NCBI GenBank assembly: GCA_963721685.1
Contig: CAVRJJ010000001.1
Coordinates: forward strand, 212,170 to 276,169
Reading direction: 5' to 3'
DNA length: 64,000 bases
Origin: an uncultured bacterium
GTDB lineage: Bacteria > Patescibacteriota > Saccharimonadia > UBA4664 > SCTI01
The translations under genes and the position numbers were made by a program. Below the pieces are notes generated by a model. That model did no database searches, was not told the DNA's origin, and saw only the letters and a program-made list of their open reading frames with translations. Below are positions 1 to 18,818 of the stretch, one piece after another. Each line of letters begins with the position of its first letter. The stretch's first letter is position 1.

Positions 1-290
1 GCATTCACCGATACCGACTTGCACGAACATTTAAAGGATCGTGAGATCAAAACCATTATTGTGGTAGGCGGCTATGGTTCTACTTGTGTACTTGCGACGG
101 CACTTATGGGTCAGATGTTTATGGTTATAACGTCTTCGTGCCAAAAGACTTGACCGCTGATTTAGACTCTGCTGATCCACGGGAAGATCCCTCGTCTCTG
201 TCCGGGAGTATTGAAGGCATTTGGATTAGTTTTTGGTTATACCCCGGAGTCTCCTGCAATTGCAAATACTTGGAAGGAAGCCGCTTCTAA
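1..290 (+). pseudogene. 3' fragment of an isochorismatase/cysteine-hydrolase-family gene (5' end outside window); frame switches from frame 1 (1..153) to frame 3 (84..290) at a GGG run near 108-112
   Basis: Frame-1 translation ...HLKDREIKTIIVVGGYGSTCVLATA fits the isochorismatase-like core (I.TLVV.G.....CV..TA). The downstream GY.V.V..D..A motif (SDVYGYNVFVPKDLTA) lies in the other frame. One extra G would join them. Confidence 0.3.
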
Positions 291-318
291 AATGTAGGTT
301 TAATTCTCGGTATAGGCG

Positions 319-348
319 TTTGCATTTATCGTCCTAATATGATATTAT
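319..348 (+). promoter_or_regulatory. sigma70-type promoter with extended -10 (TTTGCA/TTGCAT at 319..325, TGaTATTAT at 340..348) upstream of high-GC ORF 391..909
   Basis: Spacer of 17-18 nt. The TGn extended -10 is directly visible. A GGGAGAG RBS follows, 7 nt before the ATG. Confidence 0.4.
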
Positions 349-390
349 ATCGAAATCCGTTAACCACCCTCGTTCCTTAGGGAGAGTGCC

Positions 391-909
391 ATGCCCAATC
401 GACCCGAACGCCTCTGGATGTTGATGGACGTCACCGAACTGCCGCCTACGGCGGATCTGCCGACCTCGGACGCCGAGACCCGCTTCTTCAAGGGCGACAT
501 CGATGACCTGATGGCCTCTACTGGCTGGCTCACCGAGGATGACCTCATGGTCTTCCTTGAGAGCTACGACCAGCAGACTGGTCTCGACAACGAGACCGTC
601 GCGGCCAAGATGTTCAAGGCGTTCATGCGGTTCAACGACCGCGCAGCGACGCACAGTCCCGGCATGTCGTATGAGTTCCGCGAAGTCGTCGAAGACGAGC
701 GGGTTGCTCGGGGTCTGTCCGCAAGCCCGCGCTACGTGACAACCCGGCTGACCGTCAACACCGAGACCGAGTCGATCGCACGCGCGAGCGTCATCGACCT
801 CAGTCTCCAGCTCTCGGCAGTGGCCTGCTGGGTGCCGGACGGCAAGGCCGAGTACGCCAGGATCCTCCGCGACTGGGCGATCAGCCTCGAAGAGAAGGCT
901 GCCGTCTAG
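391..909 (+). CDS. hypothetical protein; foreign-composition (about 63% GC, very high GC3) ORF, cassette 1
   Basis: 172-aa ORF with a strong third-position G/C bias (ccc aat cga ccc gaa cgc ctc ...), unlike the flanking AT-rich host DNA. It has its own promoter, RBS and terminator hairpins. I recognise no protein family. Confidence 0.6.
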   Translation: MPNRPERLWMLMDVTELPPTADLPTSDAETRFFKGDIDDLMASTGWLTEDDLMVFLESYDQQTGLDNETVAAKMFKAFMRFNDRAATHSPGMSYEFREVVEDERVARGLSASPRYVTTRLTVNTETESIARASVIDLSLQLSAVACWVPDGKAEYARILRDWAISLEEKAAV

Positions 910-923
910 GCACATCACGTTCG

Positions 924-985
924 GACAGGCTCTCAGCATACCGGAGAGCCTGTCACAGCCCCGCGAGGCAGAGCCCTGCGGGGCT
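924..985 (+). terminator. two consecutive GC-rich hairpins (GACAGGCTCTC-loop-GAGAGCCTGTC at 924..954; AGCCCCGC-loop-GCGGGGCT at 957..985) 3' of ORF 391..909
   Basis: Perfect 11-bp and 8-bp inverted repeats are seen directly. No clear U-tract follows, so they may act as a terminator or an RNA-stability element. Confidence 0.4.
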
Positions 986-1005
986 AAATCATGCCATGGG
1001 CGTAT

Positions 1006-1047
1006 ACATAATTTGTTCGGATAACGTCCCATAGCCCCAGCCATACA
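1006..1047. repeat. conserved 42-bp junction motif ACATAATTTGTTCGGATAACGTCCCATAGCCCCAGCCATACA (copy 1)
   Basis: Near-identical copy at 3951..3992 (ACATAAATTGTTCGGATAACGTCCCATAACCCCAGCCATATA), 39/42 nt identical. Both lie immediately 3' of a high-GC cassette hairpin. Confidence 0.8.
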
Positions 1048-1144
1048 TTTTACATCTGTTAATATTTTTAGGGTAAGTGGGATTGCACAACTCTTTTACG
1101 ATTTCTAGTGAATATTTGTCTGGCCTACAGGTTATACTACATTA

Positions 1145-3235
1145 ATGATTCATAATAAATGGTTTCGCATATTGCTCCCATCAATACTTATAATTCTATG
1201 GCTGGGCTTAGGCTCGGCCGGTGGCCCTATCTTTGGCAAAATTTCTGAAGTCTCAACAAATGATCAAGCTGCATTCCTACCTGCTTCTGCAGAATCTACA
1301 CAGGTGCAGAAACTGCAAAGTAAATTCAATAATGGTCAGGCAATACCTGCAATCGTCATATTTGAATTTGATGAGCAGATAAATCCTGCTGAACTCCCAA
1401 CTTTTAATGCGCTTGGTGAAAAACTGAAAGTAGATGGCATTCAGCAAGTTATAGGTCCAATTCCATCAGATGATTTGATGGCGCTTGAATATATTGCCCC
1501 AGTGTCTAATGATAGCGTACTAAAAACAGTCATTAATGATTTACGCCAAGCTGCTGATAATAATTCACCAGACGGCGCAAAGACATTTGTTACAGGACCA
1601 GCAGGCTTAAGTGCGGACTTGTCTAAAGCATTTGAAGGTATCGACGGAATTTTGTTGGTAGTTGCCTTAGGTGCCGTGTTTATAATCTTGCTACTGGTAT
1701 ATCGTTCATTACTATTGCCTTTTCTCGTTTTGATCAATGCAATGCTCGCACTGTGTGCTGCAATCATTACGGTTTATTTGTTAGCCAAATACAACTTGAT
1801 TGAGCTAAATGGTCAAAGTCAGGGTATATTATCGATTCTCGTAATTGGTGCCGCTACTGATTACTCACTACTGCTTGTGTCCCGCTATAAGGAAGCGTTG
1901 AGCCGCACTAATGATAAATGGGAAACTATCGCATTTGGTATAAAAAGCTCGTTTGAACCGATTCTAGCATCAGCCGCAACAGTTGTTCTAGCACTACTTT
2001 GTCTATTGTTCTCGGATTTAAATTCAAACAAAAGTCTCGGCCCGATTGCTGCCACAGGGATAGCATTCTCGCTATTGGCAACACTCACATTCTTACCTGC
2101 TCTTCTTGCTACTTTTGGCAAAACAGCATTTTGGCCGAGTAAAATTGCCCAACCGGAGAATAAAAAGGCGGTAGCAATCAAGACAGGCCGTGAAGAACTT
2201 TCGGGTATTTGGAACAGGGTTGGAGGTTTAATAACAACTAATGCTCGTACTACATGGATCGTAATAACCGTACTACTGACGATGGCATCGCTCGGCCTCT
2301 TACAGCTAAGGGCTAGCGGAGTACCCCAGTCAGAATTAATTTTGTCACAATCAAACGCAGCCGATGGCCAAAAAGCAATCGCCCGTCACTTCGATGCCGG
2401 ATCTGGCGCCCCGGTAATTATTGCTAGCTCGCAAGCGTCTCAAAAGGGAGTAGTTAATATTCTTGAAACAAATGATAAATTAGCGATGCTCACGGCCTAC
2501 AGCGATCGTGGTCAAACTAATAACCTCAATGAGGCAAAAGTGATCGAAGGCAAAGTATTACTGAGTGCTACATTAAAAGAAGACCCGTACTCGGAGCAGG
2601 CCAGGTCGACTATTTTGTCGCTAAGAGATGAATTGAACCAAGTCGCTAGTGCTCAAGTTGGAGGTACTACTGCTATTGCAGCCGACACGAGCATTACCGC
2701 ACAACGTGATCTGAAATTAGTCGTACCATTAGTACTGCTCGTCATCTTTATAGTTTTAGCACTGCTGCTTCGGGCATTGCTTGCGCCTCTTATTTTGATT
2801 ATGACTGTAGTACTGAGTTTCGCCGCAACATTGGGCGTTTCTGCACTCATATTCAATAATATTTTAGAATTTCCGGGCGCTGACGCAACGGTACCTCTTT
2901 TCGGTTTTGTATTCTTGGTTGCATTAGGTGTAGATTACAATATTTTCTTAGTATCTCGTATAAGAGAGGAGACTTTTAAGTACGGTACACGTGCAGCGAC
3001 GCTCCATAGCTTAGGCAAAACTGGTGGAGTCATAACATCTGCAGGAGTAGTACTGGCCGCGACATTTGCCGCTCTTGGGATTATCCCGATTCTCTTTCTG
3101 GCGCAAATAGCATTTATAGTAGCCTTTGGCGTATTACTAGATACGGTTATCGTTCGGTCATTATTAGTACCGGCCTTATTTACAGATTTGGGCTCAAAAG
3201 TATGGTGGCCATCAATAATTTCTAAAGAAAAATAA
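1145..3235 (+). CDS. MMPL-family (RND superfamily) membrane transporter
   Basis: 696 aa, two blocks of about 6 TM helices separated by soluble domains, a typical MMPL layout. The gene is about 40% GC, lower than the rest of the window. Confidence 0.8.
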   Translation: MIHNKWFRILLPSILIILWLGLGSAGGPIFGKISEVSTNDQAAFLPASAESTQVQKLQSKFNNGQAIPAIVIFEFDEQINPAELPTFNALGEKLKVDGIQQVIGPIPSDDLMALEYIAPVSNDSVLKTVINDLRQAADNNSPDGAKTFVTGPAGLSADLSKAFEGIDGILLVVALGAVFIILLLVYRSLLLPFLVLINAMLALCAAIITVYLLAKYNLIELNGQSQGILSILVIGAATDYSLLLVSRYKEALSRTNDKWETIAFGIKSSFEPILASAATVVLALLCLLFSDLNSNKSLGPIAATGIAFSLLATLTFLPALLATFGKTAFWPSKIAQPENKKAVAIKTGREELSGIWNRVGGLITTNARTTWIVITVLLTMASLGLLQLRASGVPQSELILSQSNAADGQKAIARHFDAGSGAPVIIASSQASQKGVVNILETNDKLAMLTAYSDRGQTNNLNEAKVIEGKVLLSATLKEDPYSEQARSTILSLRDELNQVASAQVGGTTAIAADTSITAQRDLKLVVPLVLLVIFIVLALLLRALLAPLILIMTVVLSFAATLGVSALIFNNILEFPGADATVPLFGFVFLVALGVDYNIFLVSRIREETFKYGTRAATLHSLGKTGGVITSAGVVLAATFAALGIIPILFLAQIAFIVAFGVLLDTVIVRSLLVPALFTDLGSKVWWPSIISKEK

Positions 3236-3311
3236 ACACATAAGCTTAAAGTTTTATTGACTGAAATTAACAAATTCGGTTCTAACATCGTCTATGATAC
3301 TCAGCCAAGTA

Positions 3312-3340
3312 TTGACAGACCAATTGGCTTATGGTATTAT
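3312..3340 (+). promoter_or_regulatory. consensus sigma70-type promoter TTGACA(3312..3317)-N17-TGgTATTAT(3332..3340) upstream of high-GC ORF 3478..3864
   Basis: Perfect -35, 17-nt spacer and extended -10. The -10 overlaps the motif TATTATATATCGATCCG, which resembles TATTATATCGAAATCCG at 343..359. Confidence 0.45.
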
Positions 3341-3477
3341 ATATCGATCCGCCGCATGCAGTACTTATGTTGCTTGCGATAGCGGGGCTCATATTGAAGG
3401 TTAATGATATTGAGTGGTAGCAGTACTTCGGAAGGACCGCGGCGGAAACCGCAAACAACAACCGAAGGGAGTCCACC

Positions 3478-3864
3478 ATGGACACCAAGACCACGAAGAT
3501 CAGCAGCATCACAGGCGGGCGCAGTGCGACCGAAGAGACCACGAACATCACCGGGGTCATCATGGAGCACAGCGTTTCGGACGTGACGTTCAAGGACGTC
3601 ATCGGCCGGAGCATGCCCGACTGGCTAAACAAGCACGGCAAGGTGACGGTGACCGTTCGCGAGAACGGCGACCACAACCTCGTTGTGCTTGAGCTGGAAC
3701 TGACAGACATCAGGCTGTTGACGGAAGACGGCTGGAACAACTCCTTCAGCTATCGCGCGATTGTGCGCGGTGGCCCAAGGGACCGTATCGGCCAAACCGT
3801 CGACGGCAAGATCATCATGCAGTCAGCCGGAGGAACGTCCTTCGGCAACCTGCACGCGGCCTAG
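3478..3864 (+). CDS. hypothetical protein; foreign-composition high-GC/high-GC3 ORF, cassette 2
   Basis: 128-aa ORF with almost every codon ending in G/C, and AGGGAG-like RBS (GAAGGGAG) 8 nt upstream. No family recognised. Confidence 0.6.
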   Translation: MDTKTTKISSITGGRSATEETTNITGVIMEHSVSDVTFKDVIGRSMPDWLNKHGKVTVTVRENGDHNLVVLELELTDIRLLTEDGWNNSFSYRAIVRGGPRDRIGQTVDGKIIMQSAGGTSFGNLHAA

Positions 3865-3913
3865 CCGCAACCGCCCCCGGTTAGGGGATGAGCTCCGCAC
3901 CTACAAGATGAAG

Positions 3914-3948
3914 GAGACGTCCCCGGCAACGGGGGCGTCTCTCTTTCT
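3914..3948 (+). terminator. rho-independent-like terminator: GAGACGTCCCCG-GCAA-CGGGGGCGTCTC followed by TCTTTCT
   Basis: 12-bp stem with one mismatch and a GNRA-like loop, followed by a T-rich tract. Confidence 0.5.
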
Positions 3949-3950
3949 AC

Positions 3951-3992
3951 ACATAAATTGTTCGGATAACGTCCCATAACCCCAGCCATATA
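3951..3992. repeat. conserved 42-bp junction motif (copy 2)
   Basis: See 1006..1047. Confidence 0.8.
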
Positions 3993-4131
3993 GTTTTTGC
4001 TCAATATACATATTAAAATTTTCTTTCCCTCGCCTAAGGCATAACCGCTATTTTCTGTTGTTATGCTCGCTCCGGTTGGCTAAGCATATGCACTATACTG
4101 AACAAGTATCAAAATTTAAGGGAGAGTATAT

Positions 4132-5070
4132 ATGCATAGATTTATAGCAAAGCTAGCAACCACAGGAATAATAGTAGGGGCGCTGGCAGCACCAGCCATG
4201 GCCGCTAACTCAACAGTTGTTGTGACGCCTGCCAACTTGCAAGGATGGGCGCTCAACCGTGATGCCTCAACCTCGACACCGTATGAGTTTACCGAAGCAA
4301 AAGCCAGCATCGGCAACGGCAGTGTTTATGTGAAGCCAATCGGTGGTACCGTTGCGAAAGATAAGTTTATTGCTGAAAAGACATTAGGTTCACTCGCTTC
4401 AGAATTAAATTCTGTTGCATATGACTTTCTGATTGCCGGAAATGGAACAACCGCTAGTGCCAATCATTTTTACCTAAATGTGTACACCAATCTACCCGGA
4501 TCATCTACGTTCTATGATTGCCGATTTGATTACGTACCAACAGCAGGATCGACCTCTGCGTTCACTACCGCATCCTTCACGTCAACTTCAGCCGCGACAG
4601 CCGTAGGTGACCGAGCAGAAGATGGTTTTACCTGTCCTACTACTTGGGGCGCCATGCAGGCAGGAAGCACCATTAAGTTCATTGCGGTAAATGTGGGCGA
4701 CACCTCCCTGAGCGATGCAGGATTGGCTGGTTACCTAGACAAGGCCGTTATCAACTCAGGCGGTAACGTGACTACTTATGATTTCGAGCTAAGGAATGTC
4801 CCAACTAATGCTAACCAGTGTAAGAATGGCGGCTTCGCTAGCCTCACCAACAATAATGGTGTAGTTTTCAAAAACCAGGGCCAGTGCGTACAGTTCGTAA
4901 ACTCAAACCGATGGAGTAACTTCAATATTGTTTCGGTATTCAATACCGTAGTTCAGAAGGCAACATCGGGGAATGCCAACTCGTCATCCAACACTGTTGG
5001 CGGCAGCGCTACGAGCGGCAATGTTTCAAATACCAATAGCACCACAACAACTGTTAAAATCAAAAACTAA
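4132..5070 (+). CDS. secreted Ser/Thr/Asn-rich protein of unknown function with N-terminal signal peptide
   Basis: N-terminus MHRFIAKLATTGIIVGALAAPAMA-ANS is signal-peptide-like, the RBS is GGGAGAG, and a clean terminator follows. Confidence 0.55.
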   Translation: MHRFIAKLATTGIIVGALAAPAMAANSTVVVTPANLQGWALNRDASTSTPYEFTEAKASIGNGSVYVKPIGGTVAKDKFIAEKTLGSLASELNSVAYDFLIAGNGTTASANHFYLNVYTNLPGSSTFYDCRFDYVPTAGSTSAFTTASFTSTSAATAVGDRAEDGFTCPTTWGAMQAGSTIKFIAVNVGDTSLSDAGLAGYLDKAVINSGGNVTTYDFELRNVPTNANQCKNGGFASLTNNNGVVFKNQGQCVQFVNSNRWSNFNIVSVFNTVVQKATSGNANSSSNTVGGSATSGNVSNTNSTTTTVKIKN

Positions 5071-5092
5071 CCACCCAAAACTTAAATAAAAG

Positions 5093-5118
5093 AAAAAGCC
5101 GGCATTGGTCGGCTTTTT
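5093..5118 (+). terminator. rho-independent terminator AAAAAGCCG-gcattggt-CGGCTTTTT
   Basis: Perfect 9-bp stem including an A-tract and U-tract, so it may act in both directions. Confidence 0.7.
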
Positions 5119-5188
5119 CGCTGTCAATATAATTATCATTTAAACTAGAACGCCTCGCCGGAGCGAGGGCTCTAGCGAGACGTGGGGA

Positions 5189-5677
5189 TCAGATGACCCC
5201 GACGAGTTCTTCGAGTTCATCAAGGGAGAGGGAGAGGCGGCCGATGAAGTCGTCCCCCTCAACGATGTACTGCGCGCAGAGGCACCTCAGCCAATTGCTG
5301 TGGCGAGTATTACCTCTCTTGAGCTCATCAATCCACTGCTCGGCCCTGGCGGCTTCGCGCCAAAGCCAGAACTCCCTGATCTCATGGTGGTAGGAACCGA
5401 TCTCCTCGGGCCTAATGCCGTAACCGAGCTTTCTGGCGTCAGAAAGACGCGAGAGCTCGGGATGGATTGTCCGCCCGTAAAGGACGAAGGCGTGTGGTTC
5501 CAGGTTGCCCTGACGGCACTCGGCCAACGCCTTCCTGGCTTCAGCCTTGGCCTCCTGCATCAGCTCAGTGTCTTCGATCTTGGGAACCTCGTAGGTGAGG
5601 GCCACCGAAGCCCAGCCCGCCCCAGTCCTGGCAAGCTTTTTAAGCGCGCGAAATCGGGGGCGATTTTGCAATCCCAT
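5189..5677 (-). CDS. hypothetical protein; high-GC/high-GC3 ORF
   Basis: 162 aa. The minus-strand frame has about 75% G/C at third positions, while the overlapping plus-strand ORFs lack this bias. A CAGGAGCG RBS precedes the ATG. Confidence 0.5.
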   Translation of the reverse strand: MGLQNRPRFRALKKLARTGAGWASVALTYEVPKIEDTELMQEAKAEARKALAECRQGNLEPHAFVLYGRTIHPELSRLSDARKLGYGIRPEEIGSYHHEIREFWLWREAARAEQWIDELKRGNTRHSNWLRCLCAQYIVEGDDFIGRLSLSLDELEELVGVI

Positions 5678-5802
5678 AGGTGTACGCTCCTGGTAGACGA
5701 TTGATGATCACTACAGAGTTTATTTATTAAAGCATAAAGTGAACAATAAGTCCAGTTTGTACATGATAGCAAGTATCAGCGTCAAGGCCTATACTCACTT
5801 AT

Positions 5803-6333
5803 ATGAAGAAGCCACTCATCGCCATACTTGCCGTAGGGATCATTGCTACTGGGGCTTACATTATGATAAGCACCAACGGCCCGCAGCCGGCTAAAGACCC
5901 TAAACCGGCGGTGGTTAAGACGCCGGTAGCTCCGGCGGCGCCGAAGGAAGTAACCATCCGCGCGGCGTTTATGATATTTACCAATGGAACCATTAGAATC
6001 TTTACCGATCCGAAGTACCATAGCCGCTCAGCCGATGTTTTTATCACGCCCGAAACACCTAATGTCTTGCTGGTAAAAAAGGCAGGCATAACCTGGCAGC
6101 AGTTTTTTGATACGCTGCCGGCCCCCATGAAAGTCAGCCAAGACTGTTTAATGACCGGTACCGGCCAGAGCTTCTGCAATGGAAGCGCTGGGACCCTGAG
6201 ATTTTACTTAAATGGCACAAAAGTTGACGATTTGCTAACACGGGAAATCAAGAGCGCCGACAAAGCCTTAATTAGTTACGGGCCAAATGAAGCCCAGCTT
6301 TCGGGACAGCTGCAAGCAATTCCGAATCCATAA
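5803..6333 (+). CDS. membrane-anchored/secreted hypothetical protein
   Basis: N-terminal hydrophobic segment followed by a Pro/Ala/Lys-rich linker. Confidence 0.45.
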   Translation: MKKPLIAILAVGIIATGAYIMISTNGPQPAKDPKPAVVKTPVAPAAPKEVTIRAAFMIFTNGTIRIFTDPKYHSRSADVFITPETPNVLLVKKAGITWQQFFDTLPAPMKVSQDCLMTGTGQSFCNGSAGTLRFYLNGTKVDDLLTREIKSADKALISYGPNEAQLSGQLQAIPNP

Positions 6334-6418
6334 GGGTTTAAATAGCCCGCTATATCTTCTGCATATTGACGAAAATGGTAGAGAAGCATAAGCTTTACGC
6401 AGGAGGAAACAGTTCCTA

Positions 6419-7009
6419 ATGGCTCATGTACTTATCAAACACACCCTGCTGATTGGCGCACTTTCCTTAACGGTTGTTGGCAGCGCTTTGGCCGAACCTA
6501 ATATTAAGGCCCAGGAAGCCCGCAACAGCCAGGTTGCCGCGCAAGATGCGGGGGAAGTTAAGCGCGCGGAAGCTAAACTTAAGTCCGCTGACGCCAAACT
6601 AAAAGCTTGTCAGAAGCGTGAAGCTACTATTAATAAGAAAATGCTGCAAATTGTGGCCCGCGGCGAGAGGCAAATAGCAATCTTTACCCAAATTGCCGAC
6701 CGCACCCAGGCTTTTTACACCGCAAAAGGCAAAACGCTTAGTAATTATGCTGAACTGGTTGCTGAGGTGGAAAATAGGAAAAATCGGGCGCAGTCGGCTT
6801 TGGATCAGATGAAGTCTCACAGCGGGACGTTTATCTGCGATGCAACCGACCCAAAGGCGGTGACCCTCCATTTTAAAGAAAGCTTAAAGCGCGAAATTGA
6901 AGCCTTAAAACTGTATAAGACAGCGGTTAAGAATTTAATTGTCGGTGTCAAAAGCGTGCAGGGAAGTACCGCTTCAACCGAGGGTACGTCTAGCGGGGCA
7001 AGGCCATGA
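6419..7009 (+). CDS. secreted coiled-coil protein, unknown function
   Basis: Signal peptide ending ..SALA-EP, an AGGAGG RBS, a Lys/Ala/Glu-rich heptad-like sequence, and a 4-nt ATGA overlap with the next gene. Confidence 0.5.
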   Translation: MAHVLIKHTLLIGALSLTVVGSALAEPNIKAQEARNSQVAAQDAGEVKRAEAKLKSADAKLKACQKREATINKKMLQIVARGERQIAIFTQIADRTQAFYTAKGKTLSNYAELVAEVENRKNRAQSALDQMKSHSGTFICDATDPKAVTLHFKESLKREIEALKLYKTAVKNLIVGVKSVQGSTASTEGTSSGARP

Positions 7010-7290
7010 AACTGCGCAAAGTTCAATCCGGGTTTGCCGGGCTTGAAATAATCTTGGTTGTGGTGGCCGTTGCCTTTATTGGGTACGTTGCCTACCAGGT
7101 ATACGACGCCAATCAAGCCGAGAATGCAATGGTAAACGAGAAAGCCAAGACAGCCGAGGAAAACATCATCGCTCCAAGCATTAATTCAACGAATGATCTA
7201 ACCACGGCTGAGCAGACATTGGATCATATTGATCCTGAGGCCATCAATACCGATAGCGCTGAGCTTGATAACGAGTTAGCTGCTTTTTAG
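7006..7290 (+). CDS. type IV pilin/pseudopilin-like protein (class III signal peptide)
   Basis: N-terminus ...QSG/FAGLEIILVVVAVAFIG fits the prepilin motif, with G-F at the cleavage site, E at +5 and a hydrophobic helix. Confidence 0.5.
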   Translation: MKLRKVQSGFAGLEIILVVVAVAFIGYVAYQVYDANQAENAMVNEKAKTAEENIIAPSINSTNDLTTAEQTLDHIDPEAINTDSAELDNELAAF

Positions 7291-7485
7291 CTTACGCTCC
7301 AAAGAATAATCTATCCTATTCTGCTAAAATAGTGGTTCTAACCAGGGGGAAGCAGGATGATGAGATACTGGCGGCTGTTCTTAATCTTTAAGGTTGTTAA
7401 GTGGTTATTGCGCCTGCGGAAGCGAGCCTAAATTACCCGCACACAGACGTTTGGCGCGAGTTTTTCTTCCCGCTACGCCCAGCAT

Positions 7486-8328
7486 TTGGGGGTGGATCCG
7501 CAAGCTTGCCTGATTGCCGCCTTAGACGATCTGGGCATCCGCCGCTTCCGTCTTATGGGGCCGTGGGATCTGATAGAGCCAAAACCAGGGAAATACGATT
7601 TTAAGGACCTCGATTGGCAAATGCAGCACGTTGCTAAACGGGGCGGGGAGGTCAGCTTAACCTTAGGGTTGCGCCAGCCGCACCATCCGGAGTGCCACCT
7701 GCCCCAGTGGGCACGCGAGCTGGCACATGATGCGTGGGAAGCGGCGCTGCTGGCGTTTATCAAAGTTGTTGTCAATCGTTATAAAGATAATAAAACGGTC
7801 GTTAGCTGGCAGCTGGAGAATGAAGCGTTAAACGATGATTTTGGCCAGTGTGTAGATTTCGATAAAGAGCGGTTGGAGAGGGAGCTGCAACTCGTCAAGC
7901 AACTGGATGATAGGCCGGTGATTATGAGCTTAAAGAACCATTGGAGTTGGTCGGCGCCCGGGCCGGTGCCAGACATCTATGCTACTTCGATTTATTTGCG
8001 AATTCACCACAAGGGAAAACTGCGGAACCACATTATACCGCCGTGGTATCAACGGCTGCGTGCCCAGTACTTTCAATTGCGATATAAGCGGCCGTTCTTT
8101 ATTCATGAACTCCAAGCCGAACCATGGTGCCCACGGGGAACCCAGCACGCACCAATTAAAGAGCAAGATTTGTCTATGAACCCCAAGCAGTTCCGCTATG
8201 CAATCTCCTATGCACTTCGCACTGGTATTACGCCTATCGATCTCTGGGGACTGGAATGGTGGTATTACCGTAAAATGTTGTTTGATGATCCGGCGATGTG
8301 GAAAGAGGCGCGGAAGGTGTTTAAGTAA
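7486..8328 (+). CDS. glycoside-hydrolase-like TIM-barrel protein (GH5/GH35/GH42-like), TTG start or 5'-truncated
   Basis: The WQLENE segment resembles the NEP catalytic-acid motif of GH clans. The frame is open from 7432 with no ATG before the TTG at 7486. Confidence 0.4.
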   Translation: MGVDPQACLIAALDDLGIRRFRLMGPWDLIEPKPGKYDFKDLDWQMQHVAKRGGEVSLTLGLRQPHHPECHLPQWARELAHDAWEAALLAFIKVVVNRYKDNKTVVSWQLENEALNDDFGQCVDFDKERLERELQLVKQLDDRPVIMSLKNHWSWSAPGPVPDIYATSIYLRIHHKGKLRNHIIPPWYQRLRAQYFQLRYKRPFFIHELQAEPWCPRGTQHAPIKEQDLSMNPKQFRYAISYALRTGITPIDLWGLEWWYYRKMLFDDPAMWKEARKVFK

Positions 8329-8432
8329 GGGGCAGGCAATAGGGTGTAAGCGAGGGCGGGCAGCCTGCCCACATACTTATACCGGGATAAGGAGTATACT
8401 GCTTTGCAGTAACCTAAAAAGATAGTACAGAC

Positions 8433-8924
8433 ATGGACACAAAGCTCACAAAGCAAGTAAAGCAGGCGCGGTTCGACCTTGAAAGCGCTTTACATAATTC
8501 GGGCTTATCAATCTCCCGGCAGGACTTAGACTTGAAATACACCCAATTCGTAAACACGCATCCGGGTATGCCCCGAGAAAATTTAATTGGCAAGAAAGAT
8601 AGCGATTGGCTACATACGGATGAAGCCGCCAAGTTAACTAAAATTAAACAGCGTGCCCTTGATGGCAAACAAGGTATTCGTGAGCTATTTAAAAGCACGC
8701 TTAGCGGGGGTGAAGCCGGCGATGTTTATTACAACGACATTCGGGTGGAGCCCATTTGGGAAAATGACAAGGTCGTGGGCATCTATACCGTAGCAATTGA
8801 TATTACTCAGTTCCAGAATGCCTTAATAAAGCTGGAAAAGCTTAACGGCACCCTGCTTGAACATATGGATGCGATGCTGGGACGTCAGCCCGACCAGCGA
8901 CAACCATATAAAAGTATTATTTGA
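8433..8924 (+). CDS. PAS-fold sensor-like protein
   Basis: The C-terminal 110 aa have a PAS-like pattern (…DVYYNDIRVEPIWENDKVVGIYTVAIDITQ). Confidence 0.35.
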   Translation: MDTKLTKQVKQARFDLESALHNSGLSISRQDLDLKYTQFVNTHPGMPRENLIGKKDSDWLHTDEAAKLTKIKQRALDGKQGIRELFKSTLSGGEAGDVYYNDIRVEPIWENDKVVGIYTVAIDITQFQNALIKLEKLNGTLLEHMDAMLGRQPDQRQPYKSII

Positions 8925-8940
8925 AGAAGATCAGTTTTTT

Positions 8941-9402
8941 ATGAATAGCTTACATTTCACCATTGACGCCCACGCGTCCAAGCAAAACGTTTGGAACGTC
9001 ATGCTCGACAATAGCACCTACCGGGAATGGACAGCCGCCTTTCACCCAGGATCGTACTTTGAAGGAAGTTGGGAGAAAGGGGATAAAATATTATTTTTAG
9101 TACCCGACAAAGACAATAATGTGAGCGGTATGGTCAGCAGGGTTATTGAAAACATTCTTTACAAGTATCTCTCCGTCGAACATGTAGGTGAGGTTATTAA
9201 AGGGAAGGAAATAACCACCAGCGTGCGAGCCAAAGCCTGGGCGGGTATCCGCGAAAACTACAGCTTTAGTGAGAATGATGGTGTGACCACCCTGCAGGTA
9301 GGTATTGATAATGACGGAAAAAATAAGGAAATGGTCGAGATATTCGAGCAAATGTGGCCCCAAGCCCTTGATAAGTTAAAGGAAATTGCCGAACGACCTT
9401 AG
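8941..9402 (+). CDS. SRPBCC (Bet v1/AHSA1-like) domain protein
   Basis: The TIDAHASKQNVWNVMLDNSTYREW..F segment is typical of the AHSA1/SRPBCC family. The start is placed at the internal ATG at 8941, because the 8857 start would overlap the upstream gene. Confidence 0.5.
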   Translation: MNSLHFTIDAHASKQNVWNVMLDNSTYREWTAAFHPGSYFEGSWEKGDKILFLVPDKDNNVSGMVSRVIENILYKYLSVEHVGEVIKGKEITTSVRAKAWAGIRENYSFSENDGVTTLQVGIDNDGKNKEMVEIFEQMWPQALDKLKEIAERP

Positions 9403-9483
9403 ATTGCCATGAACAAATGAGTACAGATTACATTTCAGCTTCTTATGCTTGCTATCAAACCTAGCAGGATAAACAATAGTCGT

Positions 9484-9954
9484 ATGCACAAATTTCTTCA
9501 TATTGGCGAAACCGCCCCAGGCTTTAACTTAATTGATCATAAGGGAAAGCTTTATTCGCTAGACCAGTCACTACGCAAGGGTCCGGTAGTATTGCAGTTT
9601 TATCCATTCGATCAATCACCAAACTGTAAAGAGCGGCTCTGTTTTATTAATCAGCTCCGCGATGAATATTGGTCGGAGGGAATAAGCGTTTTTGGTATTA
9701 ATAACGCCGCGCAAGAATCACACGCTAACTTTGCTGATAAAATTAACCTAACAATGCCCCTCCTTTCAGATCCCGACTTTCAGACGGCGCGATCATATCA
9801 AGCCCTCTTTGAAATTGGACCCATAAAAGTAATCCGCACCACCACGGTCGCTATTGGCACGAACGGCAAAATAATGTTCTATAAACGCGGAAACCTCCCG
9901 GCCAAAAAAGCTCTGATTGATTTTATTTCCCGACCCGACACACCTTCTATCTAA
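9484..9954 (+). CDS. peroxiredoxin, Bcp/AhpC-TSA family
   Basis: TAPGFNLIDHKGKLYSLDQSLRKGPVVLQFYPFDQSPNCKERLC has the thioredoxin-fold peroxiredoxin signature with a peroxidatic Cys. Confidence 0.7.
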   Translation: MHKFLHIGETAPGFNLIDHKGKLYSLDQSLRKGPVVLQFYPFDQSPNCKERLCFINQLRDEYWSEGISVFGINNAAQESHANFADKINLTMPLLSDPDFQTARSYQALFEIGPIKVIRTTTVAIGTNGKIMFYKRGNLPAKKALIDFISRPDTPSI

Positions 9955-11185
9955 CATGGCTGCGCTTAAAGTCATAAATCATTTTTTCATATACCAACAA
10001 TAGTTTTTTGATTTGGTGGGACTGCGCTACGCTATCACGCTTGGCTAGCATAGCCAGGCTCATATTGTGGATGCGGTCCGGACGGCCAATCAACTTCCTT
10101 ATTGACCTCGCAATAGCCGAGGCATCCGGACTTTTCGTTAAGATTCCGCCGCTTTTGGGAACCGTTTCGCTCAAGTCGGGGTCGCAGTAAATCACTGGGA
10201 GGCCGGTGGCGATAGCCTCTAGTAATACAATCCCCTGTGTATCAAAATCGAATGAAGTGTAAACCAATACATGGTGCTTTGCCATCTCCCGCAAAATAAC
10301 CCGCTGGCTCACCGCGCCATGAATTTTTACCACCTTAGCTAGCTGATTGGCTTGAATAAAAACTTGAAGCAACGCCAGCTGCGGTCCATCGCCATATATA
10401 TCAACCTTAATACCGGCTCCCACTTCCTTGATTGCTTTTAAAAATTCAATGGGGCGCTTTTCTGGAGAAACCCGACCGCACCACATAACGCGAAGCGGCA
10501 CATCCTCCCCGTAGTTGCGCGGTTCAACCTTGTCGAGATGTTTCCAGACGCTATCTTCAATCCCATTAGAAATAACAGTGAGCGGCTGGTTCATGCCAAA
10601 ATGCTGCAGTTTGTCGGCAAAATGCTGGGAGGGGACTATCACGTGGTCGGCAAAATTAGCGTGATTAACCATTAACCGCCACATATTGCGGGCGGTTAAA
10701 CTTTTAGTATGGGCACCATCGGTCCGGATGTGTTTTTTCTTATGCGGAATGTGGCCACTATGCAGTCCAACCAGCGCAGAGCTTACCAGCCCGGATAGGG
10801 GAAGCGCTTTTTTGGCAAATACATCCTCCCGGCCATGCATCGTCTGGGCCACCGGAAGATGCAGGGCTTTGGCCGCGAGCAGGCCGGCAACACCAGCTGT
10901 CATGTCGGTGTGGACGTGGACAATATCAACCTTATGGCGCTTAATTTCACGCGTCGCCGCTTCAATAACTTTCCGCGTTCTGCCGGGAAGAGCGTATTTT
11001 CCCAGTTTAAATAATTTAAAAACCGGAAGCGCGACAATTGTTTTATCGTCGTTCGGCTGGTGGCTGGGGCAAAACACCAAGACCTCATGACCAAGCGCCT
11101 CAAGCGCCATTTTTTGTGACCATATAGAAGACTGGACGCCCCCAACCGTTGGTAAGTAATAATCGGTGAATATTGCTATCTTCAT
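9947..11185 (-). CDS. glycosyltransferase family 4 (GT-B fold)
   Basis: N-terminus MKIAIFTDYYLPTVGGV plus a C-terminal E..(8)..E-like motif region typical of GT4. Confidence 0.8.
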   Translation of the reverse strand: MKIAIFTDYYLPTVGGVQSSIWSQKMALEALGHEVLVFCPSHQPNDDKTIVALPVFKLFKLGKYALPGRTRKVIEAATREIKRHKVDIVHVHTDMTAGVAGLLAAKALHLPVAQTMHGREDVFAKKALPLSGLVSSALVGLHSGHIPHKKKHIRTDGAHTKSLTARNMWRLMVNHANFADHVIVPSQHFADKLQHFGMNQPLTVISNGIEDSVWKHLDKVEPRNYGEDVPLRVMWCGRVSPEKRPIEFLKAIKEVGAGIKVDIYGDGPQLALLQVFIQANQLAKVVKIHGAVSQRVILREMAKHHVLVYTSFDFDTQGIVLLEAIATGLPVIYCDPDLSETVPKSGGILTKSPDASAIARSIRKLIGRPDRIHNMSLAMLAKRDSVAQSHQIKKLLLVYEKMIYDFKRSHVR

Positions 11186-11244
11186 AGTTCTTCCGTGTAT
11201 TCTATCAGCTTCACAGCGTTGTGCTAGTGCTAGAATAGAAGCCG

Positions 11245-12396
11245 ATGCACCACTACAAACACAACCATTACCACACCCTTCGGTTAAGCGAGCTCAAGCG
11301 GCTTAATTGGGCGCACACCATAAAATCGCTGTCATCAAGTATGACGCTTATTTTTGTACCTATTTACCTCTATAACCTGGATTACAGCCTTCAGGCAATC
11401 CTGTGGTACTTTTTACTCGCAAACATATTGTGGATTGTATTTTTATATCCTTTTATGAAATTATCCAATAAAATTGGCGCCCATAAAGCCATGGGAATCA
11501 GCCTTATATTTCAGGGGATAGAGGCCCTGCTGCTCGCGACCTTATCGGTTTTCAACTGGCCGCTTTGGCTGCTAGCCGTGTTTTTAGCGTTCGCCTGGAT
11601 ACTGTATTGGCCCAATTTTAGGGCCTGCTTTGCCAAAAGCCTGCTGCATAAAAGAGCCGGGTTGGCCGCGGGGCTATCGGCCGCGCTTACAACGCTGGCC
11701 TACGGCATCGCCCCAGCGATCGGAGGGGCGATAGCCAGTGGTTTTAGCATCATAATTTTGTACGTGGTATCAATCGGACTTTTTGCCTTAGCCGCCATAC
11801 CACTCTTCGGCTCTAAGGAAATTATCCAGAATGACCCGTTTGTTTTAAAGGCTTTGAACGTACGTAAAATTAAACGCGACTTACTAGCCAATATGGGTGA
11901 CAATATCGACGACAGCATCTTGAGTATTATTTGGCCGTTATTTATATTTTTAGTTGTTCCCAGCTATGTGGGGGTGGGCATTTTAAGCTCGGTTTCGGTA
12001 ATTGCCGGGATGCTTATTGCCTTGTACGTGGGTAAGCGTGAAGAACTAAAAGGGGCGCGCAAATACCTAAGACGCGGTACCCTGCTTACCAGTATTACCA
12101 ATGGTATTCGTTTGCTCGCTCAATCAGCCGGTCAAATTGCCGGTGTCAATTTTGTTAATGGTCTGGGGCACGCGCTCATGGCCACCCCGTATAACGCCCG
12201 TTATTACGAAAATGCCGGCAAAGAACCTTTGCTGCCGTATGTTTTTGCCATGATGACAGTTGCCGGAATAGCCAATCTTTTTTTGTTCTCGGTACTACTC
12301 GGCATAAGCCTGATTGCCCCTATTCAAACCGTCTTATTAGTTGGGCTCTTACTTGCAGTGCCAGCCGGTTACGCGGTGAGGCTAATTCGAAATTAA
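11245..12396 (+). CDS. polytopic membrane protein (MFS-like transporter)
   Basis: About 10-12 predicted TM helices. The start may lie at an internal Met. Confidence 0.4.
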   Translation: MHHYKHNHYHTLRLSELKRLNWAHTIKSLSSSMTLIFVPIYLYNLDYSLQAILWYFLLANILWIVFLYPFMKLSNKIGAHKAMGISLIFQGIEALLLATLSVFNWPLWLLAVFLAFAWILYWPNFRACFAKSLLHKRAGLAAGLSAALTTLAYGIAPAIGGAIASGFSIIILYVVSIGLFALAAIPLFGSKEIIQNDPFVLKALNVRKIKRDLLANMGDNIDDSILSIIWPLFIFLVVPSYVGVGILSSVSVIAGMLIALYVGKREELKGARKYLRRGTLLTSITNGIRLLAQSAGQIAGVNFVNGLGHALMATPYNARYYENAGKEPLLPYVFAMMTVAGIANLFLFSVLLGISLIAPIQTVLLVGLLLAVPAGYAVRLIRN

Positions 12397-12508
12397 CATC
12401 AACAAACTTTAAATTTTGACATTCGCAAAATAGTGACTTAGTAAAGCAAAAACTTATCCTTACATACAGGTAATGCTATGATTGCTGTATATGACGATTG
12501 GATAGTTT

Positions 12509-13270
12509 ATGGCCTCAGCAATAGTAGTTAACAGTTTAGTTAAGACTTACGGAAAAGGCGAAGCCCGTTTTACCGCTTTAAATGATATCAGCCTTGAAAT
12601 CCAAGAGGGTGAAAGTGTTGCCATTCTCGGCAAGAGCGGGTCTGGTAAGTCAACCTTAATGCACCTCATGGCACTACTGGACAAACCAACCAGCGGCCAA
12701 ATAGTCATAAAAGGCCAAGACTCATCAAAACTGTCCGGCCGAAAACTAAACCGTCTTCGCAATAAAGAGTTTGGCTTTGTGTTCCAGCAATTTTTCCTAA
12801 ATGCCAACGCCAGCGTACTAGATAACGTCTTACTGCCACTAAAGATTGCCGGCATGAGCCGCCGTGAGCGTAAACAAAGGGGCTTAGAAACCCTGCGCAA
12901 TGTTGAGCTGGAAGATAAGGCCAAAAGCAAAGCCAACAATTTAAGCGGCGGGCAGAAGCAACGGGTAGTTATTGCGCGGGCTTTAGTGAACGATCCGGCC
13001 ATCCTCTTTGCCGATGAACCCACCGGCAACCTTGATAGTGTTACCGGGAAAAACGTGGAAGATCTCTTGTTTGCCTTAAACAAGAATCAAAATATCACGT
13101 TAATTATTGTTACCCATGACGAAGACCTCGCCGCCCGCTGTGACCGGCAAATCCGCATTCGTGACGGCATAGTTCAGTCCGCTTCTTTACCGAAGCCACC
13201 GGTCCAACCCGAACAGCGGGTGAGAACACTACGACCAGCCATAAAGCGCCCCCGAAAGGTTCAGTTATGA
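12509..13270 (+). CDS. ABC transporter ATP-binding protein (LolD/MacB-type)
   Basis: Walker A GKSGSGKST, signature LSGGQKQRV, Walker B ILFADEPT. Confidence 0.9.
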   Translation: MASAIVVNSLVKTYGKGEARFTALNDISLEIQEGESVAILGKSGSGKSTLMHLMALLDKPTSGQIVIKGQDSSKLSGRKLNRLRNKEFGFVFQQFFLNANASVLDNVLLPLKIAGMSRRERKQRGLETLRNVELEDKAKSKANNLSGGQKQRVVIARALVNDPAILFADEPTGNLDSVTGKNVEDLLFALNKNQNITLIIVTHDEDLAARCDRQIRIRDGIVQSASLPKPPVQPEQRVRTLRPAIKRPRKVQL

Positions 13271-14559
13271 AAACTCTCGATCTACTTACCACCGCCAGTG
13301 GCAACATTTGGCGCAGCAAGCTACGAACCTTTCTAACGGTTACCGCCGTCTTCATTGGCGCCTTCACCCTAACCCTTACCACCGGTATTGGCTCGGGAAT
13401 TTCCAGCTATATTGAAAAAGAGGTTAACAATCTTGGCGCTAAAGACGTGCTTATTGTCCAGCCAAAAGGTAGTGATGAAATTCCAGGCAGCACTAAACCA
13501 AAGAAATACGACCCTAATACCAAGGTTGTGGCCGTGAGTGACTTCAGGGGCTCCAGCGCGGTAATTACGGACGCGGACTTAGGGAAAATTGAAAAAATTA
13601 AAGGTATAGAATCGGTTGAACCTGCCAAAAGCGTCGCGCCCGATTACATTGCCGGAGAAAATAACCAAAAGTATCAGGTAAGGATTTCACAGTTTATTCC
13701 CGGCTCAAACTTAACCCTAACCGCGGGTAAGCAAGTTATCTCCGGGACTACTGTTAACCAGGTAATTTTGCCGGGTAGCTATGTTTCAACCCTTGGTTAT
13801 AAAAAAGCTGCAGACGCGATTGGTAAAACCGTTACACTTGGCATTAGTTCGGCTTCCGGCAAGCAGAGAACCACCCAAGCAACTGTTATTGGCGTACAAC
13901 AAAGCGGCCTAGCGGCAGATGGCGGTGTGACTGCCAACCGAACCCTACTAGACCAGCTTTACAAGTTCCAATCCGAAGGCCTACCGCAAGCTTCAACCAA
14001 CCAGTACCAGCTTGTGTTTGCCAAGTTTGATAGCAACTATACCACTCAACAAAAAGCTGAATTAAAGAAGAAGCTTTCGAACGCGGGTTATACCGGCCAA
14101 ACAGTGCAAGACCAAATTGGCACCTTTACCGCTGTCATTGATGGGATTATTTTAGTCCTTAACGCCTTCGCCGTTATTGCTTTGCTGGCTGCCAGCTTTG
14201 GGATCATTAATACCCTTTTGATGTCGGTTCAGGAAAGAACCAAAGAAATTGGGTTGATGAAAGCTATGGGCATGGGCGGGGGACGCATATTCAGCCTGTT
14301 TAGTTTTGAAGCAATCTCATTGGGCTTTTGGGGCAGCGTCATTGGCGTCGCGGTTGCCGCTGGTGTGGGCCAGATTGCGAATAAAATTGTTTCCGAAGGC
14401 TTCTTAAAAGAACTGGTTGGCCTGCAGATCTTTGCCTTTACGCCGCAGAACATTGCCGGGATCATCGCACTGGTTGTAGGTATCGCCTTCTTAGCGGGCA
14501 CGCTTCCAGCTTCTAAGGCGGCCCGGAAAAATCCCATCGACTCATTACGTTACGAATAA
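13267..14559 (+). CDS. ABC transporter permease, FtsX/MacB-like
   Basis: N-terminal TM helix, a large periplasmic domain and a C-terminal FtsX-type 3-TM bundle. Overlaps the ATPase gene by 4 nt. Confidence 0.85.
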   Translation: MKTLDLLTTASGNIWRSKLRTFLTVTAVFIGAFTLTLTTGIGSGISSYIEKEVNNLGAKDVLIVQPKGSDEIPGSTKPKKYDPNTKVVAVSDFRGSSAVITDADLGKIEKIKGIESVEPAKSVAPDYIAGENNQKYQVRISQFIPGSNLTLTAGKQVISGTTVNQVILPGSYVSTLGYKKAADAIGKTVTLGISSASGKQRTTQATVIGVQQSGLAADGGVTANRTLLDQLYKFQSEGLPQASTNQYQLVFAKFDSNYTTQQKAELKKKLSNAGYTGQTVQDQIGTFTAVIDGIILVLNAFAVIALLAASFGIINTLLMSVQERTKEIGLMKAMGMGGGRIFSLFSFEAISLGFWGSVIGVAVAAGVGQIANKIVSEGFLKELVGLQIFAFTPQNIAGIIALVVGIAFLAGTLPASKAARKNPIDSLRYE

Positions 14560-14985: not shown

Positions 14986-15894
14986 ATGAATAAATTTTTT
15001 AAGGTTTTAGTGGGATCGATACTAGGGTGCGGTTTAATAGGATTGATTGCCTATTTGCTGCAAACCGGGTCGATTGCCGTGCTTGATCCCCGAGGGCTTA
15101 TAGCGTCCGAGCAGTATCAATTAATGCTACTAACCACGCTGTTGATGCTGGTTATTGTGGTACCGGTTTTTGTAATGACTTTTGTTATTGCCTGGAAATA
15201 CCGCGCCAGCAACACCACTGCAACTTATTCACCAGACTGGGACCACAGCCGGCTGGCGGAAACGCTATGGTGGGCGATACCGTGTGTGATTATTGGGATA
15301 TTAGCAATTATCATCTGGAAGAGCAGTCATGACCTTGATCCGTTTAAGCCGCTTGTGTCAGACAAAAATCAACCCATTACCATTCAGGTGGTAGCCCTTC
15401 AATGGAAATGGTTGTTTATCTACCCGGAGCAGCAAATCGCCAGCGTAAATGAAGTCCGGTTTCCCGCGGATACTCCGGTCAACTTCAACATCACGGCAGA
15501 CGCCCCCATGAATTCCTTTTGGATTCCGCAGCTTGGAGGGCAAGTCTACGCGATGGCCGGGATGGAAACCCAATTGCACCTCATAGCCGACAACCCCGGC
15601 ACCTTTGCCGGATCATCAGCTAATTTAAGCGGAGCTGGCTTTGCTGATATGCGATTTGAAGCCAAGGCCACCTCACAAACGGATTTTGACCGGTGGGTAA
15701 AAGCAGTCAAAGAAAACGATCCAAATAAGTTTTTAAATAAACAAGCGTACGCAAAACTGGCAAAACCGGGCAAAGCAGAAATTCCAACTTCTTACGCCTC
15801 GGTAGCGGACGACATATACCGTAGCGCTATTATGAAGTATATGGCTCCCCAGACAGAAACTAACCCGCACCAAATGCATCCGGAGTCGCTATGA
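14986..15894 (+). CDS. cyoA: cytochrome o ubiquinol oxidase subunit II
   Basis: Lipobox-like ILGC, two TM helices and a cupredoxin fold (...[17 protein letters not shown]) that lacks CuA ligands, as in quinol oxidases. Confidence 0.85.
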
Positions 15895-18442: not shown

Positions 18443-18443
18443 G

Positions 18444-18818
18444 GTGGGCCACAAATCCTCAGCCCCGGGGAGTGGGCAGGGGTCAATAACTTCATACATG
18501 GTTGGGTTTTTCTTATCCCTCATCTTAACCTATGAAGCTTACCTTTTAGTCACTTACCACATCCTCAGCGACCGACTGCTGCTCGCGGCCGTGGTGGTAG
18601 CAGCGGTCATGCAGCTCGTGGTCCAACTAGTCTTTTTTCTTCATCTCGGTAGTGAGTCCAAACCTCGCTGGAACCTGATAGTATTTTTGTTTACCCTAAT
18701 GGTTCTGGTGATTTTAGTCTTTGGTTCACTCTGGATCATGCACAACCTAGACTACCACATGATGTCCCCGGTAGAAACGGATACGTATATTCAGCATGAA
18801 GAAGGGATTAAGAGATAG
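18444..18818 (+). CDS. cyoD: cytochrome o ubiquinol oxidase subunit IV
   Basis: 124 aa with 3 TM helices, positioned between cyoC and cyoE. Confidence 0.6.
   Translation: MGHKSSAPGSGQGSITSYMVGFFLSLILTYEAYLLVTYHILSDRLLLAAVVVAAVMQLVVQLVFFLHLGSESKPRWNLIVFLFTLMVLVILVFGSLWIMHNLDYHMMSPVETDTYIQHEEGIKR

Follow-up and report, generated by a model that had tools for sequence, protein, structure and literature searches.

In Patescibacteria, which live attached to other bacteria and whose tiny genomes contain few known mobile elements, the gain and exchange of accessory genes are poorly understood. Small modules that carry no recombinase are familiar from Acinetobacter plasmids, whose pdif modules are bounded by short sites (XerC/XerD dif-like 28-mers in alternating orientation) and are moved in trans by the host-encoded Xer recombinase. 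In Prochlorococcus, flexible genes lie in tRNA-adjacent islands bounded by partial tRNAs, where newcomers push older units inward; the hallmark of these tycheposons is a tyrosine recombinase with replication modules, and their cargo reaches 10 kb or more (bioRxiv 10.1101/2020.12.28.424599). Here we describe a locus in a 64-kb stretch of DNA from an uncultured Saccharimonadia bacterium (contig CAVRJJ010000001.1, positions 212,170 to 276,169 of the forward strand; hereafter the window, numbered from its first nucleotide). Region 300-1050 of the window holds a small GC-rich open reading frame (ORF), ORF1, and, judged from its sequence, is a self-contained unit with a promoter-like site, a ribosome-binding site, hairpins and a conserved repeat that we call a joint; the window holds several units of this kind. 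We favour, with moderate confidence, the reading that this region is a single-gene cassette in a chromosomal chain, whose joints are tRNA-derived att sites used in site-specific recombination by a recombinase acting in trans.

A cassette of this kind would consist of a promoter placed directly after the preceding joint, one gene, terminator-like hairpins and a joint of ~45 nt. In the joint, a GTTC box would be separated by a spacer of constant length (21 nt) from the final 10-12 nt of a tRNA gene, which in the window is tRNA-Gln. The elements of the two high-GC cassettes, and of the unit between them, are as follows (GC3 is the GC content at third codon positions).

319 to 348, plus strand: promoter-like site of cassette 1, TTTGCA, 18 nt and TATTAT with TG, 9 of 12 matches (TGATATTAT at 340-348)
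381 to 386, plus strand: Shine-Dalgarno-like GGAGAG, 4 nt 5' of the ORF1 ATG
391 to 909, plus strand: ORF1, 172 amino acids
924 to 954, plus strand: hairpin 1, a perfect 11-bp GC-rich stem with a 9-nt loop
957 to 985, plus strand: hairpin 2, a GC-rich stem, not called as a canonical intrinsic terminator
1003 to 1051, plus strand: joint J1, with the GTTC box at 1015-1018, 21 nt and GCCA at 1040-1043, ending in GCCCCAGCCA
1145 to 3235, plus strand: MMPL-family transporter gene, the unit between J1 and J1b, GC3 0.35
3277 to 3310, plus strand: joint J1b, CGGTTCTAACATCGTCTATGATACTCAGCCAAGT, GTTC-N21-GCCA, 3' of the MMPL stop codon and 5' of the cassette 2 -35 box
3312 to 3340, plus strand: promoter-like site of cassette 2, TTGACA, 17 nt and TATTAT with TG, 11 of 12 matches
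3478 to 3864, plus strand: ORF2, 128 amino acids, GC3 0.84, no known family
3910 to 3946, plus strand: hairpin of cassette 2, GC-rich, followed by TTTCT
3948 to 3996, plus strand: joint J2, the second copy of the J1 motif

Joints J1 and J2 are 90% identical over 49 nt, and their 21-mer core gave two matches against an expectation of zero. The conserved 42-bp motif (1006..1047) reported by an earlier reading of this DNA from its letters alone (hereafter the sequence-only reading) lies within this repeat. That reading missed what the motif appears from its sequence to be, a joint derived from the 3' end of tRNA-Gln, and with it the place of the unit in a tRNA-anchored array. The terminal GCCCCAGCCA is the 3' acceptor strand of tRNA-Gln with the discriminator and CCA, and is followed by TA in the window motif. 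A hidden Markov model (HMM) built from the seven joints outside the window recovered J1 (24.8 bits), J2 (24.7 bits) and J1b (11.8 bits, E 0.018); the J1b score was reached by none of 100 block-shuffled windows, and a separate scan gave J1b an E-value of 0.019. J1b falls within the 76-nt gap that separates the MMPL stop codon (3235) from the TTGACA -35 box (3312), and the promoter-like site of cassette 2 begins 5 nt past the J1b CCA (3305-3307). Cassette 2 is a unit of ~680 nt with a joint on both sides, running from promoter-like site through 5' untranslated region, ORF2 and hairpin to joint, and cassette 1 is the unit ending at J1.

Other identities considered for the motif were rejected. A small peptide gene on the minus strand was discarded because its frame is not kept between the two copies. 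A true tRNA, a tRNA-like RNA and membership of an Rfam family were also discarded; positions 1-6500 gave no Rfam match. A joint-like site inside the MMPL ORF (1190-1212, minus strand; CCCAGCCATAGAATTAT, the right half of a joint) was put down to chance (E 0.035 with the full model, 0.35 with the external-only one). The closest relatives of the MMPL protein are in metagenome-assembled genomes of a member of the Patescibacteria (49%) and of the Saccharibacteria (41%), followed by dozens of Actinomycetota proteins at 40-45%; this gene, whose GC3 of 0.35 is far under the mean of 0.53, looks like an older transfer that now fills one unit of the array. The relatives of this one gene, with the gene content of the window, are the thin evidence for an otherwise reasonable assignment to Saccharibacteria/Patescibacteria.

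The link to tRNA genes emerged from metagenome contigs, of which an exact scan with the joint 21-mer yielded three (L042, L043 and L044). L044 carries an intact tRNA-Gln(CTG) gene (205-279, ending ...GCGCCCCAGCCA) and, behind it, three joints in the same orientation that end ...CCAGCCA or ...CCAACCA and continue into (T/A)AGCA-type sequence. The third of them (~2086-2120), 1.8 kb downstream of the tRNA gene, is the window motif with its 21-mer. In L042 the joint motif lies next to unrelated sequence, and two more joints behind it delimit small units, one of them GC-rich; in L043 the motif stands beside yet another unrelated sequence. Exact-motif scans of species-representative genomes and of viral contigs gave no match. 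All ten Gln-type joints, aligned at the CCA, fit without gaps to GTTC-N20-R-GCCA, and a left arm of 21 nt is identical beside five unrelated cargos, four of which share 24-26 nt. The GTTC in the T-loop of real tRNA-Gln lies 5 nt closer to the CCA than the GTTC of the joint (6 nt for tRNA-Asp), and the joint is therefore not a plain copy of the 3' half of the tRNA; it consists of the last 10-12 nt of the tRNA and a separate conserved GTTC box. On L042, two Gln-type joints also enclose a unit (~1330-1850, minus orientation; 53-62% GC) with no convincing ORF, which may be a decayed high-GC cassette or non-coding cargo, and a further degenerate joint (1979-2004) lies ~60 nt upstream of the first joint (j1), which would leave an almost empty unit.

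A second array, anchored at a different tRNA, was found through P0004, a distant relative of ORF1 that is encoded on the 14.6-kb contig L045 and, in other samples, on five shorter contigs that represent this locus. Here a tRNA-Asp(GTC) gene (6079-6154) is followed by ~12 small ORFs on the same strand (array 6079-13463), at least seven of which end in a ~44-nt motif (..AAAATAGTTCCAGAyTTCC...CGGCCCGCCA) that finishes in the tRNA-Asp end GGCCCGCCA. The joints are spaced 617-932 nt apart; a seventh copy, outside the training set, was recovered at E 0.001, and the joint at ~8140-8174 retains a longer stretch of the true tRNA-Asp end. Several joints continue as CCA|CATTGAC, ~17 nt and TATAAT-like boxes, so that each unit starts with its own putative promoter. 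In this array only the P0004 unit is rich in GC (GC3 0.61 against ~0.36 for its neighbours), and two hairpins come after it. The stop codon of several ORFs falls within the joint (..AAATAGTTCC..). A Fic-domain unit occupies 11458-12456 according to precomputed annotation, and nearly all other products lack a Pfam match. Viral sequences gave 21 matches to the Asp-type seed, which were dismissed as chance since only the seed matched.

That tRNA-Gln and tRNA-Asp are each accompanied by joints carrying their own end is a pattern expected from site-specific integration at tRNA genes; it favours att sites over a generic repeat of regulatory function, such as a terminator, an operator or a repetitive extragenic palindromic (REP) element, which would not produce it. 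On the reading we prefer, site-specific recombination at the 3' end of tRNA-Gln would have left the joints of the window behind as att-type scars. Recombination would take place within a block shared between units that covers the very 3' end of the tRNA and the sequence immediately past it (CCAGCCAWAGYACTTATGC in L044 and L042), and would be catalysed by a recombinase encoded elsewhere and acting in trans. New cassettes would enter at the tRNA end and push older units downstream, and the tRNA-Gln gene would sit upstream of window position 1. Each cassette may be transcribed from its own extended -10 promoter and its transcript terminated or stabilised by the hairpins.

Partial tRNA repeats of this sort could also have been left by integrase-carrying islands or prophages that integrated serially at tRNA-Gln and then decayed, stranding single genes between the repeats with no dedicated cassette system at work. 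There is good documentation of elements integrating one after another at tRNA genes and leaving displaced partial tRNAs and degenerate remnants (Islander, PMC4383910; tycheposons), and decayed islands would show no recombinase beside the arrays, as is the case. The units of L045, however, are very small and regular (seven joints at 617-932 nt), each with one intact ORF and its own promoter-like site, and no integrase fragments were found anywhere. In the joints, moreover, the GTTC box stands at a constant distance, exceeding that in the tRNA by 5 nt (Gln) or 6 nt (Asp), and the same 21-nt left arm recurs beside five unrelated cargos. We therefore regard decayed islands as unlikely and retain the cassette chain as the preferred account.

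Several observations weigh against the cassette chain. No recombinase (integrase or transposase domain) was found in the 58 ORFs and ORF fragments scanned in the window or on contigs L042-L050, including the ten ORFs scanned on L045. The sequence-only reading had noted that no integrase or transposase lies nearby, which holds for these 58, yet this does not mean that site-specific recombination is absent. Cassette 1 has no joint on its left: a degenerate look-alike at ~296-323 was seen by eye, and no hit with E<=10 was obtained there. The only tRNA gene in the 64 kb is tRNA-Leu (49550-49636); tRNA-Gln is not among them, and the tRNA linkage of the window array rests on the related contigs. Three high-GC units of the window (5189-5677, 22320-22748 and 62437-62996) have no joint, and high-GC genes therefore also enter this genome by another route. 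No presence/absence polymorphism was seen, the six samples with the L045 array sharing one gene order, and no circular cassette was observed. A literature search, itself incomplete, turned up no such arrays in the Candidate Phyla Radiation (CPR) or Saccharibacteria; a paper on 'hypervariation' in Gracilibacteria was considered as a precedent and rejected, since it concerns a repeat protein.

The cargo of cassette 1 stands out by composition. ORF1 (391..909, plus strand) has a GC content of 0.632, with 0.61, 0.45 and 0.84 at the three codon positions, and its GC3 of 0.84 lies 5.6 standard deviations above the 45 other window ORFs (mean 0.528 +/- 0.055, range 0.35-0.61). The sequence-only reading had described this ORF as about 63% GC with extreme third positions, and the figures bear it out; GC3 is not uniform across the window, which had been proposed as a check. 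The setting of about 40% GC that it gave holds for the local flanks (0.36 at 251-350, and 0.32-0.38 at 1001-1150) and the neighbouring MMPL gene, to which it is confined, and does not hold for the window as a whole (~50.6%). Compared with its closest homologue, P0002 (77% identity; contig L001 of the Logan assemblies), ORF1 shows a dS of 0.48 and a dN of 0.12 over a codon alignment of 170 codons; the resulting dN/dS of 0.25 indicates that ORF1 and its frame are under purifying selection. ORF1 is therefore, on sequence criteria, a compositionally foreign and genuinely coding gene, in keeping with the earlier proposal that it was acquired. Because its family keeps the high-GC signature, a high-GC donor pool is the implied source. 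The GC3 of ORF1 is compatible with any high-GC donor and is not diagnostic for Actinobacteria, to which the sequence-only reading had likened its codon usage.

Upstream of ORF1, the site at 319-348 agrees with the definition of a sigma-70 extended -10 element (TGn before the -10 hexamer) and is a putative promoter. The TG-extended -10 announced by the sequence-only reading is thus present, while 'near-consensus' overstates a site with 9 of 12 matches, which we call promoter-like only. Such sites are not enriched in the region scanned (six observed against 9.1 expected from shuffles). The sequence TGNTATTAT occurs four times in 64 kb, three times upstream of a high-GC ORF (ORFs 1, 2 and 4); the fourth occurrence (TGGTATTAT, 57418) was rejected as a further cassette because it sits within a Pro/Ala-rich ORF. 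A shared left end of cassettes 1 and 2 was likewise rejected, the similarity of their promoters being limited to the TGnTATTAT box. The ribosome-binding site (GGAGAG, 381-386) and the two perfect GC-rich hairpins (924-954 and 957-985) that the sequence-only reading had described are present. The fold of the cassette 1 hairpins is more stable than that of shuffled sequences (z=-4.3) and neither hairpin is followed by a T-run; hairpin 2 is probably a terminator or an RNA-stabilising structure. In the L001 homologue the stem of hairpin 1 is kept and the loop differs, and the 3' end of the contig reads GACAGGCTCTC...GGAG. The foreign composition of cassette 1 spans approximately the start codon to just past the hairpins, which gives the segment an mRNA-like shape, one that fits capture by way of an RNA intermediate and is not evidence for it. 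An antisense ORF (334..1044, 236 amino acids) is longer than ORF1 itself.

The ORF1 product is acidic (isoelectric point 4.5) and has no predicted transmembrane segment, hydrophobic segment or signal peptide, and we predict a small acidic cytoplasmic protein. Profile searches of Pfam, PHROGs, NCBIfam, PADLOC and the Protein Data Bank (PDB) gave no match, so that no family can be assigned, as the sequence-only reading had already conceded. AlphaFold2 models were unreliable, with predicted local distance difference test (pLDDT) scores of 45 and 48 from alignments of two and three sequences. A word-indexed search of 5.8 billion clusters returned only ORF1 itself and P0002. When 1.84 billion representatives were searched exhaustively with HMMER, P0003 and P0004 were added, making three relatives in all, none of them with a known domain. 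P0003, a paralogue that is either truncated or frameshifted, is encoded outside the window on the 405-kb contig from which the window is taken; P0004 is a protein of 169 amino acids (profile E 1.2e-9; 34% identity by tblastn). The matches in Actinomyces, Schaalia or Corynebacterium that had been expected of a host-derived gene did not appear, these three relatives being all that the collections yielded. An actinobacterial host origin is accordingly unproven: no homologue was detected in Actinomycetota or in phages. By tblastn, ORF1 had no match in known phages or plasmids and ORFs 2-4 none in known phages; scans of viral contigs with ORFs 1, 2 and 3 gave nothing credible.

Members of the ORF1 family occupy four different contexts, in three of which their GC3 exceeds that of the neighbouring genes (0.84, 0.74 and 0.61). 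The relatives all lie in low- or mid-GC surroundings and none in a demonstrably high-GC genome. On L001 the upstream DNA is unrelated to that of the window: an IS630-like transposase gene (3-554, minus strand, 46% GC) lies directly 5' of P0002, and high-GC composition starts at the ATG of the homologue, the same switch from low to high GC as in the window. The family thus also adjoins a transposable element, with no recognisable joint; L001 ends before a joint could show. As to function, our low-confidence guess is an accessory interaction protein, for instance an immunity or anti-defence factor, which would be typical cassette cargo.

These contexts bear on a simpler account, in which ORF1 arrived by plain horizontal transfer from a high-GC host or phage (for example natural transformation with illegitimate recombination) and the repeat is an unrelated native intergenic element. 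The entirely different DNA upstream of ORF1's homologue on L001, with foreign composition beginning at the ATG, fits this account. So do the three other high-GC units of the window, which have promoter-like sites and hairpins and no joint, and the many actinobacterial relatives of the MMPL protein (40-45%), which indicate that such transfer does occur in the lineage. It does not explain, however, why the motif carries the exact 3' end of tRNA-Gln and is chained behind tRNA-Gln, or why the Asp arrays carry the tRNA-Asp end; a native element is also at odds with a motif that has neither an Rfam match nor a conserved secondary structure. Nor do protein collections hold a donor homologue of ORF1 or ORF3, or known phages one of ORFs 1-4. 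We consider plain transfer less probable again than decayed islands, and the cassette chain remains our preferred reading. The three units without a joint (5189-5677, minus strand; 22194-22862, plus strand; 62370-63000, plus strand) have a GC3 of 0.71-0.73 (z 3.3-3.7), promoter-like sites and GC-rich hairpins. ORF3 (5189-5677) is a singleton ORFan; the ORF4 unit has TTGACA, 18 nt and TATTAT with TG, and two long hairpins; and the unit at 62370-63000 encodes two small membrane ORFs (62437-62751 and 62778-62996), both with the ribosome-binding site CGAAAGGGGA.

The assembly itself appears sound. An independent Logan assembly of run ERR12037361 shows the gene order of the window, with MMPL, ORF2 and the gene after it, on a contig that begins ~138 nt upstream of MMPL, within the repeated joint motif. 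Together with the composition switch on L001 this makes the chimeric misassembly that the sequence-only reading had named as a hazard very unlikely. A number of genes are split or truncated (1-290, 30469-30864, 49727-50903 and 55520-55837), either as pseudogenes or through long-read indel errors; 1-290 is the frameshifted C-terminal part of an isochorismatase gene, and half a methylpurine DNA glycosylase gene, a sortase gene in two ORFs and a glycosyltransferase fragment occur elsewhere in the window. The frameshift in P0003 could be an artefact of the same kind. An assembly chimera, or a chance open frame in GC-rich non-coding DNA, is very improbable and largely refuted: high-GC DNA does yield long spurious ORFs (such as antisense 334..1044, 236 amino acids), structure predictions are poor (pLDDT 45-48) and several window genes look frameshifted, so that the assembly may hold errors, but dN/dS is 0.25 against an independent contig, GC3 reaches 0.84 in the plus frame only, the ribosome-binding site is correctly placed, a distant homologue exists at the protein level, and the Logan assembly and L001 reproduce the context of cassette 2 and the switch at the ATG, respectively.

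The gene content of the window is chromosomal and includes phosphoenolpyruvate (PEP) carboxylase, glutamate dehydrogenase, glutamyl-tRNA synthetase (GluRS), MreB, a sortase and a cytochrome bo3-type oxidase operon. The last of these (14986-19675) is a complete quinol oxidase operon (subunits II, I, III and IV) with a UbiA-family (heme O synthase-like) gene. Very large genes for repeat-rich surface proteins stand in a row at 36127-49445 (minus strand), beside tRNA-Leu(CAA) (49550-49636); these genes contain EPTP/DUF6242-like 126-nt tandem repeats, LVIVD repeats with a 129-nt period, Big_7 domains and a beta-helix.

If the cassette chain is real, tRNA-anchored, self-expressing cassettes would provide a concrete mechanism, findable by a sequence model, for the flexible genes of Patescibacteria. 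The emerging field of Saccharibacteria genetics would also be able to draw on them for natural promoters and insertion sites. Cargo ORFans like ORF1, foreign in composition and lacking known relatives, would supply candidates for host-interaction, immunity and anti-defence functions.

Among the described systems, pdif modules differ from the units reported here in their sites, which in our arrays are chromosomal direct repeats derived from the 3' end of a tRNA. Tycheposons resemble the arrays in occurring in a genome-reduced bacterium without classical mobile elements and in having a tRNA anchor and partial-tRNA boundaries; they differ in that no hallmark recombinase or replication genes lie between the joints here and the units hold single genes. 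With the islands that tyrosine integrases target to tRNA genes (Islander-type) the arrays would share an att site overlapping the tRNA 3' end, boundaries marked by partial-tRNA repeats and the expectation that units pile up behind the tRNA as one integration follows another. Repeats of a tRNA end stand beside the intact tRNA gene on L044 (Gln, three joints) and L045 (Asp, at least seven), while the window has three joints and no tRNA-Gln in its 64 kb. Unlike such islands, the units described here measure 0.6-2.3 kb, hold one gene and lack integrase, excisionase and replication genes, and their joints combine the last 10-12 nt of the tRNA with a GTTC box that is not part of it and stands at a fixed distance.

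With integrons the arrays have in common chains of small cassettes that share one orientation, mostly hold a single gene of unknown function and bring no recombinase of their own, a conserved recombination site at the 3' end of the cassette, cargo whose composition is unlike that of the host and, as we infer here, growth from one anchor. The anchor is a tRNA 3' end in these arrays and attI beside intI in integrons. No IntI-like gene was found nearby, and scans of the window, which does not include the place where the array begins, turned up no integrase domain. Whereas attC is defined by its folded structure, the joints have no conserved hairpin: in RNAalifold the six Asp-type joints gave 0 conserved pairs and the five Gln-type joints a trivial 4-bp stem without covariation, and the joint was accordingly rejected as an attC-like hairpin. 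Integron cassettes rely on Pc, while the cassettes here have promoter-like boxes of their own, recognised by sequence. Functionally, the array is nearest to an integron, yet it fails on intI, on attC hairpins and on promoterless cassettes. It is possible, if on balance doubtful, that the Gln and Asp arrays represent a hitherto undescribed integron-like capture platform of Saccharibacteria or Patescibacteria, with tRNA-anchored, promoter-bearing cassettes, joints of ~45 nt, a recombinase in trans and mRNA-like segments that may have been captured from a high-GC host or its mobile elements by way of an RNA intermediate. Were this so, the problem that integrons solve would have been solved a second time, by independent evolution, in these arrays.

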